DNA of 64,000 nt from Escherichia coli (GTDB taxonomy: Bacteria; Pseudomonadota; Gammaproteobacteria; Enterobacterales; Enterobacteriaceae). A program made the translations under genes and the position numbers. Of the stretch, positions 59,054-64,000 are shown piece after piece. The first letter of the stretch is position 1; the number at the start of each line of letters is the position of its first letter. The stretch lies in assembly GCF_003019035.1 (NCBI RefSeq), contig NZ_CP027447.1, one strand, 5' to 3'. The notes beneath the pieces are model-generated. The model did not search any database. It was not told where the DNA came from and saw only the letters and a program-made list of their open reading frames with translations.

Positions 59054-60310
59054 TTATTTACTCATAGTATTGATATTGAAGACCTGTTCCAGCATGGGAT
59101 TGAACACAAAGCCTTTCACCTCTTTGTTCATCGCCAGTTGATAGTTTTTCTGGAACAGGTACACATAAGCAGCGTCATCAATGACGATTTTCTGTGCCTG
59201 CTGGTAGTCCCGGGTACGCTGCGTCTGGTCGGTGGTCGCTAGCGCATTGCGCAGTAACTTATCGACCTCACTGTTTTCATAGAACGAGCGGTTACCCGGC
59301 AGACCTTTTTTGTCGGACTCAAACCAGTAATTCATAAACATATACGGGTCGGCAAAATCCGGACTCCAGTTGCCAATCGCGATGTCGTAATCACCTTTAC
59401 CCACTCTGTCGCGCATGGTGGCGTTCGCCAGCTTTTCCAGCTTCACATTGATGCCCAGCTTGTTGAGACTGGATTGTGTCGCCAGAGCAATAGGCTCCCA
59501 GTTCGGATCATTATCAGAATAGAGAAACGTCAGGCTGGTGGGTTTGCTCGTCACTTTATCCCATTCGGCTTTGGCTTTCGTTTCGTCATGGTTGTATTGC
59601 ATTGCCGTCGCATCGTATCCCCACATGCCTTCCGGAATCGGGCCGCGCATCTGTTTTCCGTTACCACTCAGAATGCCGTTAACCATTCCCTGATAATCGG
59701 TAGACCAGGAAATGGCCCGACGCAGATCCGCCTGATTAAGTGGCGCTTTGCTGTTATTCAGATACAGATAGGTGACGCGCAGTGACGGATACTCTGCCAC
59801 ATTGACTTTGTTTTCCTGCTTCAGTGCGTTGAGTTGATCCACCGGCAGCGCATCGGCAATGTCAATGTCGCCACGGGAGAGCTGCAGGCGACGGGAAGCA
59901 CTTTCACCGATAATTTTTACCGATACCCGTTTGAAATTCGGTTTATTGCCGGGGTAATGCGGATTTGGCACCAGAACTAATTGCTGACCTTTTTGCCAGC
60001 TTTTCAGCATAAACGGTCCGGAGCCAGCGGTATTTTGCGCGAGGAAACCACGGGCATCATCCGCCGCATGCTCCTTTAAGACCGCCGGATTGATAATGGA
60101 TGCACCGTCATTCGCCAGCGTGTAGAGGAACGGTGCGAATGGCTGGCTAAGGGTAAACCTCACTATATGTTCGTCGGGAGCATCAATCTTTAAATCTTTG
60201 GGAAATGCTTCTGCTGGCCCCTGGCCGATTTTTAGTAACCGCTCAAAAGAGAGTTTTACTGCTTCGGCAGTGACAGGTGTGCCATCGGCAAATTTAGCAT
60301 TGTCCTTCAG
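59054..60310 (-). pseudogene. ddpA: ddpA (periplasmic D,D-dipeptide-binding protein) 3' portion, disrupted by Mu-like prophage insertion
   Basis: Frame stays open upstream of track ORF 59054..60163 to the junction, encoding …LKDNAKFADGTPVTAEAVKLSFERLLKIGQGPAEAFPKDLKIDAPDEH…; phage end sequence begins at 60311. Confidence 0.8.
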
Positions 60311-60500
60311 TGTATTGATTCACTTGAAGTACGAAAAAAAACCGGGAGGACATTGGATTATTCGGGATCTGATGGGATTAGATTTGGTGGGGCTTGCAAG
60401 CCTGTAGCGCAAATTTTAGTCGTTAATCAATGAAACGCGAAAGATAGTAAAAAATTGCTTTTGTTTCATTGAAAATACGAAAAACAAAAACACTGCAAAT
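60311..60500 (+). promoter_or_regulatory. Mu-type attL with transposase-binding sites (L1-L3 region)
   Basis: Terminal TG and repeated …ttcaYtNNaaRtacgaaaa… motifs (for example 60311..60340 and about 60456..60486). Confidence 0.55.
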
Positions 60501-60649
60501 CATTTCAATAACAGCTTCAAAAAACGTTCAAAACCGATAACAACCAGGCTGTAACCAAATGACTCATATCACAAATCAGCTCATGCCGTTTAGGTATGTT
60601 ACATGTGTGATTATGTGAGGTGAAGTATGTTTTAGCTGGTTCATGGTTG

Positions 60650-61168
60650 TTATACGGCTTTTTTTACATCTTGTGGTTCTTGCGAAGGAGCTACAAGACC
60701 TTCCTGTTCATGAATACCATGCTCTGACAAAATCTCTTTGCGCTCTTCTGCTGGTAAAGTTTCTAGCATTTGGGCGAGTTGTATGCACTCACGCGATACG
60801 CCGTGCAGAGATTGGATTTGAGTCTGATCAAAGATACTTGGCATTAGTGCACTAAGTCCACCTTTACTAAGTAGCTTTAATGCCCTCTGGATTTCCTCTG
60901 GTTCTAACTCTGCAACCAAAGCCATTAACACAGAAGCTAACTTATAAGCTGACTTATCGTTATCTAATAACTGCGCCCCTCCTAATTCTGCCTGAGTGGC
61001 ATCAGGTAATGAGCTGATATGGTATTCATAAGCAACACCCTTTACTCCTTTGATCTGTCTCTTTTTCCATCCCTCATTAGTTGCTTTGCGGCTAATACTA
61101 CTTGCTGAAGACGGAAGACCAGCAACCCCTTGTAGCTCTTTAGCTGAAAACCATTCTTGTGTCATCAC
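60650..61168 (-). CDS. Transposable-phage repressor c (D108-like N-terminal DNA-binding domain), about 172 aa
   Basis: Track ORF; N-terminus is a paralog of the transposase N-terminus (…WFSAKELQG…GLP…S…ISRKA…[15 protein letters not shown]…). Confidence 0.7.
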
Positions 61169-61365
61169 AAACCTCGCTTTAAATACACGATGTATTCAAA
61201 GAAATGAAAAATATATTCACTTTAAAATCATCGAGATAGATGAATTTCAAACAAAACATTTGAATACACTATTGCATTGACAATGTATTCACACTAGCAT
61301 TACTGCATACCTTATCAGCTACCTTGCGGCGTAGCTGATGGCGTAGCTTGTGAGGATTGCATTTT
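61169..61365. promoter_or_regulatory. Operator and divergent early/repressor promoter region between c and ner
   Basis: Position between divergent c and ner; AT-rich, with inverted repeat atcagctac-N8-gtagctgat. Confidence 0.45.
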
Positions 61366-61584
61366 ATGGCGATAAAGAAAAGTAAATGTGAAGACAAAAG
61401 TAGATACGACATTGTTGCTGATCTGCGCAAAAGAGGAAAAAGCCTAGCAGCTCTTGGTCGTGAGAACGGTCTCTCTATCTCTACGGTAAAAAATGCCTTG
61501 GATAAACCTTACCCTCGGGGGGAAAGAATCATTGCCGATGCATTGGGAGTTGAGCCACGAGACATCTGGCCTTCGAGGTATTGA
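61366..61584 (+). CDS. ner: Ner-like DNA-binding protein, 72 aa
   Basis: ATG at 61366 with GAGGA ribosome-binding site; …[29 protein letters not shown] is a Ner/Nlp-family signature. Confidence 0.7.
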
Positions 61585-61586
61585 AA

Positions 61587-63587
61587 ATGCAACCACAATG
61601 TAATGATTGGTTTTCTGCAAAGAAATTAGAAGGGCTGATAGGTCTTCCAAAATCCTCTAGCGCGATCTCTCGTAAAGCAAGGTTAGAACAGTGGGTGTTT
61701 CGACAGATACACGGGGTAAGAGGAGTAGCCTATGAGTTTCATATCTCATCTTTACCAAAGGAAACGCAAGCTGCGTTGTTGCTTAGACAAGGAGAGATCG
61801 AAACAAGCCAGGGCCGTTTTGAAATCGCCCGCCCCACGCTGGAAGCCCATGATTATGATCGTGAGGCACTGTGGAGCAAATGGGATAACGCCAGCGATTC
61901 CCAGCGCAGACTTGCTGAAAAATGGTTGCCTGCGGTTCAGGCCGCAGACGAAATGCTGAACCAGGGGATTTCAACAAAAACGGCTTTTGCGACCGTTGCA
62001 GGGCATTACCAGGTCAGCGCATCCACTTTGCGGGACAAGTATTACCAGGTACAGAAGTTTGCGAAGCCTGACTGGGCGGCTGCGCTTGTTGATGGACGTG
62101 GTGCATCCCGTCGCAACGTTCACAAAAGTGAATTTGACGAGGATGCCTGGCAGTTTCTGATTGCAGATTATCTGCGACCGGAAAAGCCCGCCTTCCGCAA
62201 ATGTTATGAGCGTCTGGAACTGGCAGCCCGCGAGCATGGCTGGAGTATTCCCTCCCGTGCCACGGCCTTTCGCCGGATTCAGCAACTGGACGAGGCAATG
62301 GTTGTTGCCTGTCGTGAAGGTGAACATGCACTGATGCATCTGATACCGGCACAGCAGCGAACTGTGGAACACCTGGACGCCATGCAGTGGATCAACGGCG
62401 ACGGTTATCTGCATAACGTCTTTGTACGCTGGTTTAACGGTGATGTGATCCGCCCGAAAACATGGTTCTGGCAGGATGTGAAAACCCGAAAAATTCTGGG
62501 CTGGCGCTGCGATGTGAGCGAGAACATTGATTCAATTCGCCTCTCGTTCATGGATGTTGTGACTCGCTACGGTATCCCGGAGGATTTTCACATCACCATT
62601 GATAACACCCGTGGTGCTGCGAATAAATGGCTGACGGGAGGCGCGCCCAATCGCTACCGCTTTAAGGTAAAAGAGGACGATCCAAAAGGACTGTTTTTAC
62701 TGATGGGGGCGAAAATGCACTGGACAAGCGTTGTTGCCGGTAAAGGCTGGGGCCAGGCAAAACCTGTTGAACGTGCTTTCGGTGTTGGTGGGCTTGAGGA
62801 ATACGTTGATAAGCATCCGGCACTGGCTGGCGCATATACGGGGCCTAATCCGCAGGCAAAACCTGATAACTATGGCGACCGCGCTGTTGATGCAGAGCTG
62901 TTTCTGAAAACCCTTGCCGAAGGTGTGGCGATGTTCAATGCCAGAACAGGCCGTGAAACAGAAATGTGCGGAGGCAAACTTTCGTTTGATGACGTTTTTG
63001 AGCGTGAATACGCCAGAACGATTGTGCGTAAGCCTACCGAAGAGCAAAAACGGATGCTGTTACTGCCTGCCGAGGCGGTGAACGTTTCACGTAAAGGCGA
63101 GTTCGCGCTTAAAGTTGGCGGCTCCCTTAAAGGTGTGAAAAACGTTTATTACAACATGGCGTTAATGAATGCCGGAGTGAAAAAAGTTGTGGTCAGATTT
63201 GATCCACAGCAGTTACACAGCACGGTTTATTGCTACACCCTGGACGGTCGGTTTATCTGTGAAGCGGAATGTCTGGCACCTGTTGCGTTTAATGATGCTG
63301 CGGCAGGCCGTGAATATCGCCGCCGCCAGAAACAACTGAAATCTGCGACGAAAGCAGCAATTAAGGCACAGAAACAAATGGATGCACTGGAAGTGGCAGA
63401 GCTGCTGCCGCAGATAGCCGAACCTGAAGCACCAGAATCACGAATTGTCGGCATTTTCCGGCCTTCCGGTAATACGGAACGGGTGAAGAATCAGGAGCGT
63501 GATGATGAATACGAAACTGAGCGTGATGAATATCTGAATCATTCGCTGGATATTCTGGAACAGAACAGACGTAAAAAAGCCATTTAA
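61587..63587 (+). CDS. Mu-family DDE transposase A, about 666 aa
   Basis: Track ORF 61581..63587; from about residue 60 matches MuA as I recall it (…[13 protein letters not shown]…[37 protein letters not shown]…). Confidence 0.9.
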
Positions 63588-63625
63588 TTAACGTTTAAAC
63601 AAAATTTAATTACGAGGTTATTCAG

Positions 63626-64000
63626 ATGAATATTTCCGATATTCGCGCAGGACTGCGCACGCTTGTAGAAAATGAAGAAACCACCTTTAAACAAATTGCT
63701 CTTGAGAGCGGACTTTCTACCGGAACTATCAGTAGTTTTATCAATGATAAGTACAACGGGGATAACGAGCGTGTTTCACAAATTCTGCAACGCTGGCTGG
63801 AAAAATATCATGCAGTTGCAGAACTACCTGAACCGCCCCGCTTTGTGGAAACGCAGACGGTAAAACAAATCTGGACAAGTATGCGTTTTGCCAGCCTGAC
63901 TGAAAGTATTGCTGTTGTGTGTGGCAATCCTGGTGTGGGCAAAACCGAAGCGGCCCGTGAATATCGCCGCACCAATAACAATGTCTGGATGATCACCATT
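63626..64000 (+). CDS. Mu B-type transposition ATPase, N-terminal part (runs off the window end)
   Basis: Hand translation MNISDIRAGLRTLVENEETTFKQIALESGLSTGTISSFINDKYNG… with Walker A GNPGVGKT; not in the track because no stop falls within the window. Confidence 0.85.
   Translation, partial: MNISDIRAGLRTLVENEETTFKQIALESGLSTGTISSFINDKYNGDNERVSQILQRWLEKYHAVAELPEPPRFVETQTVKQIWTSMRFASLTESIAVVCGNPGVGKTEAAREYRRTNNNVWMITI

Follow-up and report, generated by a model that had tools for sequence, protein, structure and literature searches.

Phage Mu integrates by transposition: a transpososome of MuA assembles on the phage ends, MuB captures the target, strand transfer proceeds with a 5-bp stagger, and repair leaves a 5-bp target duplication; the target preference of Mu is N-Y-S-R-N. 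Its relative D108 differs from it by non-homology which is limited to c, ner and the start of A, and the c and Ner proteins of a third phage, SfMu, are D108-like (PMC4406740). Here we describe a prophage of this family in Escherichia coli, the left part of which is seen in a stretch of 64,000 nucleotides from contig NZ_CP027447.1 (assembly GCF_003019035.1; this whole stretch is referred to below as the window), where it interrupts ddpA, a gene of the D-Ala-D-Ala transporter operon ddpXABCDF. The explanation that we hold with high confidence is that this element is a temperate transposable phage of the Muvirus kind, carrying an immunity module like that of phage PhiR68_1, which became integrated into ddpA by Mu-type transposition. 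The element is a natural Mu-family lysogen of a known and well-understood kind, sitting in a dispensable gene, and its unusual trait is confined to the repressor/operator module.

The host-phage junction in ddpA

The junction between host and phage DNA lies exactly at 60310/60311 of the window. Over the 25,000 bases preceding it (35311-60310) the window is 100.0% identical to the genome of E. coli SCU-301, and this identity ends at 60310; the second-best complete E. coli genome over the same range is 99.4% identical. At the equivalent position SCU-301 reads ...tccttcag^ggtgaacg..., inside an annotated, intact ddpA of 516 codons, and the Mu left end was absent from its genome in searches of 5426 complete E. 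coli genomes with a junction probe and with the immunity region. Two further relatives with an empty site and an intact ddpA (L047 and L048) match the window at 99.99-100% identity. The first-pass annotation of this DNA had placed the junction at this very position, based on a ddpA frame that is free of stops up to 60310, and both the end of the SCU-301 identity and the known empty site agree with it.

The identification of the interrupted gene as ddpA follows from its 100% DNA identity to the ddpD'-ddpC-ddpB-ddpA stretch of SCU-301 up to the junction, and the list of open reading frames (ORFs) shows the osmC-ddpFDCB synteny, viz. osmC on the plus strand and then ddpF, ddpD, ddpC and ddpB on the minus strand. 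The ddpA frame (minus strand) is without a stop from 59054 to 60310, which corresponds to nt 295-1551 of the gene and begins at codon L99; the breakpoint in gene coordinates falls after nt 299. Upstream of the truncated frame the foreign DNA adds three codons (I-N-T), followed by TGA. The retained fragment is without a start codon, a signal peptide and the promoter-proximal part of the gene, its first 98 codons being gone. The features on the host side are as follows.

55235..56161, minus strand: ddpF, ABC ATPase, at the end of ddpXABCDF and downstream of the insertion (ORF; a 308-amino-acid ABC_tran/oligo_HPY gene is at the equivalent place in L028, described below)
56154..57140, minus strand: ddpD, ABC ATPase (ORF; SCU-301 annotation; L028 gene calls)
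57137..58033, minus strand: ddpC, permease (ORF; SCU-301 annotation, DNA 100% identical)
58030..59052, minus strand: ddpB, permease (ORF; SCU-301 annotation, DNA 100% identical)
59054..60310, minus strand: ddpA 3' fragment, codons L99-K516 and stop, nt 295-1551 of 1551 (open frame; 100% identity to SCU-301)
60306..60310, no strand: TTCAG, left copy of the 5-bp target-site duplication, fitting N-Y-S-R-N (single copy in SCU-301, L047 and L048)

A probe of 400 bases across 60310/60311 matched 4274 of the 5426 complete genomes. Its left half fell in the annotated ddpA. Its right half was found in few genomes, within unrelated genes such as arcC and pspG, and none of the 5426 spans the junction.

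Loss of ddpA is also seen in an unrelated lineage of E. coli (L016-L020, e.g. GCA_000407965.1 KE136762.1; 98.9% identical to the window), which came to light in a look-up of a 369-amino-acid ORF of the ddpA C-terminus. In these strains a frameshifting deletion of 46 bp (nt 161-206) divides ddpA into ORFs of 83 and 369 amino acids, with no phage present. The 369-amino-acid product is found in 401 assembly blocks, representing an independent and common loss of ddpA, and this lineage suggests that the gene is readily lost in nature. The possibility that the phage had entered a ddpA pseudogene of this type was rejected, the deletion lineage being only 98.9% identical to the window versus 100% for SCU-301.

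The left end and early genes of the phage

From 60311 onwards the window reads TGTATTGATTCACTTGAAGTACGAAAAAAAACC... (beginning with TGTATTGATTCAC) and is 97-100% identical to Mu bp 1-300, with a run of 8 A near the left end versus 7 in Mu. Three matches to the MuA-site consensus YMYNWRAARYRCGAAAR, which was taken from the D108 record, are present on the plus strand with the spacing of Mu, viz. L1 at 60321-60337, L2 at 60427-60443 and L3 at 60467-60483; the whole 64 kb holds one further match, where 0.75 is expected by chance. Identity to Mu is 97-100% over 60311-60610 and 92% in the last block of attL, versus 64-92% for D108 over 60311-60649. The earlier recognition of a Mu left end at this place has therefore withstood alignment with the Mu and D108 termini, by which the sequence is a Mu-type terminus. 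Beyond it are found c (minus strand), ner, A and B (all plus strand), in the order of Mu as had also been proposed, for which ORFs, Pfam domains and protein alignments now provide support; every Mu-family feature that can be read in the window is present.

60311..60649, plus strand: Mu-type left end (attL), beginning 5'-TG, with MuA sites L1-L3 (Mu identity; consensus matches)
60650..61165, minus strand: c repressor of 171 amino acids with PhiR68_1-type immunity, read in the direction of the left end and ddpA' (ORF; Pfam HTH_Tnp_Mu_1 for the exact protein)
61166..61365, no strand: divergent early regulatory region with putative operators/enhancer (repeats; position between c and ner as in Mu)
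61366..61584, plus strand: ner, 72 amino acids (ORF; Pfam HTH_35 for the L028 gene)
61587..63587, plus strand: A, DDE transposase, 666 amino acids (Pfam HTH_Tnp_Mu_1, HTH_Tnp_Mu_2, DDE_2 and Mu-transpos_C for the exact protein)
63626..64000, plus strand: B, target-capture ATPase of the AAA+ family (MuB), of which 125 codons, among them Walker A GNPGVGKT, precede the cut at the window end (translation)

The catalytic triad of A is kept, D272, D339 and E395 aligning with D269, D336 and E392 of MuA. The full-length B protein, as seen in L028 (100% identical over the common part), has 312 amino acids with AAA_22 and Phage-MuB_C domains. The N-termini of c and A are 65% identical over 60 amino acids, and a repressor and a transposase with a common DNA-binding domain is the Mu-family arrangement.

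Twenty distinct insertion sites, each beside different host DNA, have one and the same T of TGTATTG as the first base of the element; these sites are the loci returned for the exact repressor and A proteins together with the MIN10 prophage and PhiR68_1. The flanking pentamer agrees with N-Y-S-R-N at 19 of the 20 sites, where 12.5% is expected by chance, and TTCAG is a pentamer of this kind. In the PhiR68_1 record the duplication TTCAA is present on both sides. The MIN10 prophage (E. coli O126:H45, NZ_CP069677.1) is flanked on both sides by GCCGA and splits a DKNYY-family gene. It resembles the present phage in its immunity region (99.9% identity) and in the 8 A of its left end, and its outermost 134 bp at the right end are identical to those of the ddpA lysogens; however, it sits in the DKNYY-family gene, which adjoins cyaY, and not in ddpA.

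The right junction in assemblies of the same lineage

The first-pass annotation had expected TTCAG to recur at the other end of the prophage. The window stops before the right end, and no copy of the Mu right-end sequence is present anywhere else in it; however, in public assemblies of the same lineage the expected arrangement was found, with the right end, TTCAG, the ddpA 5' part, ddpX and dosP following one another. For a simple insertion with duplication of TTCAG, a fusion ORF of 112 amino acids was predicted, in which M1-L99 of SCU-301 ddpA is continued into a right end of the MIN10/Mu type. This ORF (...EWTFTL-NEAAHEKRESVSR) was found exactly in 57 blocks, all of them short contigs of sequencing-run assemblies. 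A fusion ORF built with the right end of PhiR68_1 is not on record, and the MIN10/Mu-type end is the correct one. The order of genes in these contigs is gadC, a GHL10-family gene, dosC, dosP, ddpX, the fusion ORF, a 111-amino-acid ORF, mom, com and gin; their junction DNA reads ...TTTTTCGTGCGCCGCTTCA-ttcag-ggtgaacgtccactc..., the continuation at the empty site being ggtgaacg, and their host part is 99.93-99.97% identical to SCU-301. A look-up of the dosP allele led to five NCBI assemblies with the right junction and to two empty-site relatives with an intact ddpA. The lineage assemblies read ...GCGCCGCTTCA-TTCAG-GGTGAACG..., which is the 5' part of ddpA, and then continue into ddpX and dosP. 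One contig of 74.9 kb with the right junction (L050) carries 8.8 kb of tail-fibre and baseplate genes. In contig ABNBRD020000018.1 of GCA_032174115.2, which is 74,903 bp long, the right junction is near 66,380. The 5-bp duplication is in this manner seen in the lineage assemblies, in MIN10 and in PhiR68_1, the right end of the window's own copy lying beyond the window.

The left junction is also found outside the window: contig ABDARA010000017.1 of GCA_020350545.1 (L028) is 125,210 bp long, has the junction near its base 15,628 and is 100.000% identical to 54587-64000, and there are three similar places besides. In L028 the early genes continue intact over 10.3 kb, as far as mor and C. Together with the lineage contigs, in which the right end, mom, com, gin and the genes for tail fibre and baseplate are seen, this covers the phage except for its middle ~18 kb. 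The two sets of junctions, which share pentamer and orientation within one narrow lineage, are most simply interpreted as one Mu-type insertion event seen from both sides.

Some other searches were less productive. The 69-amino-acid ORF across the left junction is not on record, so that no sequencing run is tied to both junctions, and a look-up of the 111-amino-acid right-end ORF returned other insertion sites only. The right-junction string GCCGCTTCATTCAGGGTGAACG had no match in genome_contigs, metagenome_contigs or viral_contigs, and the left-junction string had none in genome_contigs or viral_contigs; these collections are without the source genome and are uninformative on the insertion.

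In the relatives L047-L053, 9-10 kb past the right junction (locus 3600-4611), differences are seen upstream of the gad decarboxylase gene which adjoins gadC: its neighbours are treF-yhjA (gadA-type) in some and pqqL (gadB-type) in others, in lysogens and non-lysogens alike. In the alignment of L049 with L047, which represent one type each, there are 66 differences, all but one within the first ~1 kb. This pattern looks like gadA/gadB recombination or an inversion within the lineage.

A distinct immunity module

Among 50,697 phage records, PhiR68_1 (PV340575.1) is the sole record covering the whole 3.69 kb from 60311 (100% coverage, 98.5% identity). Mu covers 73% of this part, in two pieces, and D108 and SfMu match it only from query base 1477 on; the immunity segment is left out of the megablast alignments to Mu and D108. 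Segment identities from a four-way DNA alignment (window, Mu, D108 and PhiR68_1) and the protein identities are given below.

DNA 60311-60610 (attL): Mu 97-100%, D108 72-92%, PhiR68_1 98-100%
DNA 60709-61785: Mu 29-64%, D108 31-67%, PhiR68_1 90-100%
DNA 61786 onwards: Mu 92-100%, D108 90-100%, PhiR68_1 94-100%
c protein: PhiR68_1 95.9%, Mu 45.9%, D108 39.5%
ner protein: PhiR68_1 98.6%, Mu 50%, D108 66.7%
A residues 1-75: PhiR68_1 100%, Mu 50%, D108 52%
A residues 76-666: PhiR68_1 99.3%, Mu 99.3%, D108 99.7%

The c gene, the operator region and ner have all diverged from their counterparts in Mu and D108, and the phage falls within neither of these immunity groups; the assignment of its repressor as that of D108 was rejected, as the two c proteins are only 39.5% identical. 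By sequence comparison the phage is neither Mu nor D108, and its immunity module, which extends from c over the operators and ner into A as far as codon ~75, appears to represent a third type. A lysogen carrying it is expected to be heteroimmune to Mu.

In other respects the phage is very close to the described members of the family. With Mu (AF083977 / NC_000929) it shares the gene order, the DDE residues, the layout of the end sites, the 5-bp duplication and the target preference, with B ~99% identical, as it also is to the B of D108 and of PhiR68_1. With D108 (NC_013594) and SfMu it shares the family and the gene order, and the D108 A protein is 99.7% identical from codon ~76; however, the attL of D108 is more diverged from that of the window than is the attL of Mu. 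The non-homology that separates D108 from Mu, limited to c, ner and the start of A, likewise separates the window phage from either of them. PhiR68_1, whose host is E. coli C, shares the immunity module and the left terminus, and its A protein is 99.2% identical as a whole. It differs by seven amino-acid changes in c, by an L1-proximal A run of 7 versus 8, by a right end with a 'D108-specific protein' gene and another terminal sequence, and by its insertion site.

The spacer between c and ner holds copies of TGTATTCA/TGAATACA and, just upstream of ner at 61314-61348, a perfect 9-nt inverted repeat (ATCAGCTAC-N8-GTAGCTGAT) overlapping two tandem copies of GGCGTAGCT. Going by position, the spacer repeats are candidate repressor and Ner operators, and the inverted repeat is a candidate Ner operator specific to the PhiR68_1-type immunity. 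The block least conserved with PhiR68_1 is 61204-61296 (90%).

The module is present in 14 of the 5426 complete E. coli genomes, and its hosts come from humans, dogs, poultry, cattle and soil; in public assemblies the exact c repressor is found in 1691 blocks and the exact A protein in 173. A literature search returned no paper on the PhiR68_1-type module, and the sole paper naming PhiR68 phages deals with another topic. On balance, and with some reserve, we favour the interpretation that the cassette of c, operators, ner and A(1-75) constitutes a third, so far undescribed immunity group of the E. coli Mu-family phages beside those of Mu and D108/SfMu, in which the repressor, the operators/enhancer and the enhancer-binding N-terminal domain of A would have been swapped together, with boundaries at the 3' end of c and at ~A codon 75.

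Alternative explanations

Some observations weigh against the explanation of a Mu-family phage integrated into ddpA by transposition. The window covers only 3.7 kb of the phage, with another ~33 kb and the right junction lying beyond its end, and the left and right junctions are seen in different assemblies of one lineage and not in one contig. A simple scan of the c-ner region gave no consensus sigma-70 promoter. The polar effect on ddpBCDF and the loss of ddp function are points that we infer from the gene arrangement. Further, truncated Mu-like remnants exist in other strains: in L010 (GCA_949281505.1) a left end, c, ner and a 150-amino-acid fragment of A are followed by host genes, and L046 (GCA_047908855.1) has an internally deleted element with a c of D108 size (174 amino acids), ner, and then gemA/mor and right-end genes.

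These remnants, together with the short length of phage DNA within the window, make it conceivable that what lies in ddpA is no complete, inducible prophage, but itself a defective remnant of the left end (c-ner-A-B...). However, its c, ner and A genes are of full length and the DDE residues are intact; L028, which is identical over the phage part 60311-64000, goes on through its intact early genes; mom, com, gin and genes for tail fibre and baseplate are present in the contigs that have the ddpA right junction; and there are contigs of 125 kb and 75 kb with space for a full 37-kb prophage. We therefore regard a remnant as improbable, and the prophage copy in the window is presumably intact and inducible.

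Replicative transposition of Mu is known to yield deletions and inversions, and, with the right end outside the window, the junction could in principle mark one end of a deletion or inversion that Mu brought about by intramolecular replicative transposition, in which case the 5' part of ddpA would not lie beside the right end. However, in many lineage assemblies the right end is followed by this very pentamer, after which ddpA continues exactly, which is the signature of a simple insertion, and on either side the host DNA matches the same empty-site relatives at 99.97-100% identity, so that the probability left to a rearrangement is very slight. An assembly chimera or a laboratory insertion mutant (e.g. 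a Mu cts lysogen), which the 97-100% identity of attL to Mu and the classical use of Mu as a laboratory mutagen might bring to mind, can for practical purposes be dismissed, since an independent NCBI assembly and the three similar places have the very same junction, the immunity region is neither that of Mu nor that of D108, and the same repressor recurs in the assembly blocks and complete genomes counted above.

Comparison with SCU-301 elsewhere in the window

Apart from the phage, a difference from SCU-301 is seen in the region of Rhs and VgrG genes. The window encodes an intact Rhs protein of 1417 amino acids at 21550-25803, and the difference lies at 22942-23922: the SCU-301 gene, annotated as frameshifted, is shorter by 981 bp, an in-frame stretch of 327 codons flanked on both sides by a 10-bp repeat, CACGCCGGAC; the gap in SCU-301 could be either a deletion or an assembly collapse. 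Between ~13800 and 27650, among Rhs/VgrG genes, the window has several repeats of ~1.3 kb matching the ISAs1-family transposase genes of SCU-301. In SCU-301 the syntenic region is annotated with a copy of IS621, and its mcbR and tssI genes with internal stops.

Consequences for the host and for the phage family

A Mu-type transposition into ddpA can be envisaged as follows. A MuA tetramer would have assembled on the end sites L1-L3 and R1-R3, the 3' ends of the phage (...CA) would have been joined with a 5-bp stagger to a target selected by MuB, and repair would have left the TTCAG pentamer on both flanks. In the resulting lysogen, the c repressor should shut off the early promoter, and hence ner, A and B, probably by binding to the TGTATTCA-type repeats between c and ner.

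In the host, ddpXABCDF forms a single operon which is transcribed from an NtrC/RpoN-dependent ddpX promoter (PMC8743547). In the lysogen ddpA is split at codon 99 and ~37 kb of phage DNA would separate ddpA'-ddpBCDF from this promoter; therefore, loss of the D-Ala-D-Ala transporter is expected, whereas ddpX should remain beside its own promoter. The first-pass annotation had likewise described ddpA as inactivated and ddpBCDF as cut off; the disruption at codon 99 and the position of ddpBCDF downstream of the insertion are seen directly, and the functional loss is probable from this arrangement. Classical Mu insertions are strongly polar, and the present one is probably polar on ddpBCDF as well. 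However, c points in the same direction as ddpA'-BCDF and a scan of the c strand between c and the left end found no terminator-like site, and because of this some read-through from c into ddpA'-BCDF is conceivable.

What is known of the mechanism of Mu is unchanged by the ddpA lysogen; it adds to the small set of wild Mu-family lysogens a natural insertion for which both an empty-site control and the target duplication are available. In the strain that carries it, the insertion uncouples ddpX from ddpBCDF. As a clonal marker the ddpA::Mu-like junction is clean: dozens of public sequencing runs have it, whereas near-identical strains keep the empty site. For the family as a whole, the PhiR68_1-type module has not yet been compared with those of Mu and D108 in the literature searched, and, if the interpretation of the cassette as a third immunity group is true, it would provide a natural and fairly widespread test case for the co-specificity of repressor, transposase and enhancer.

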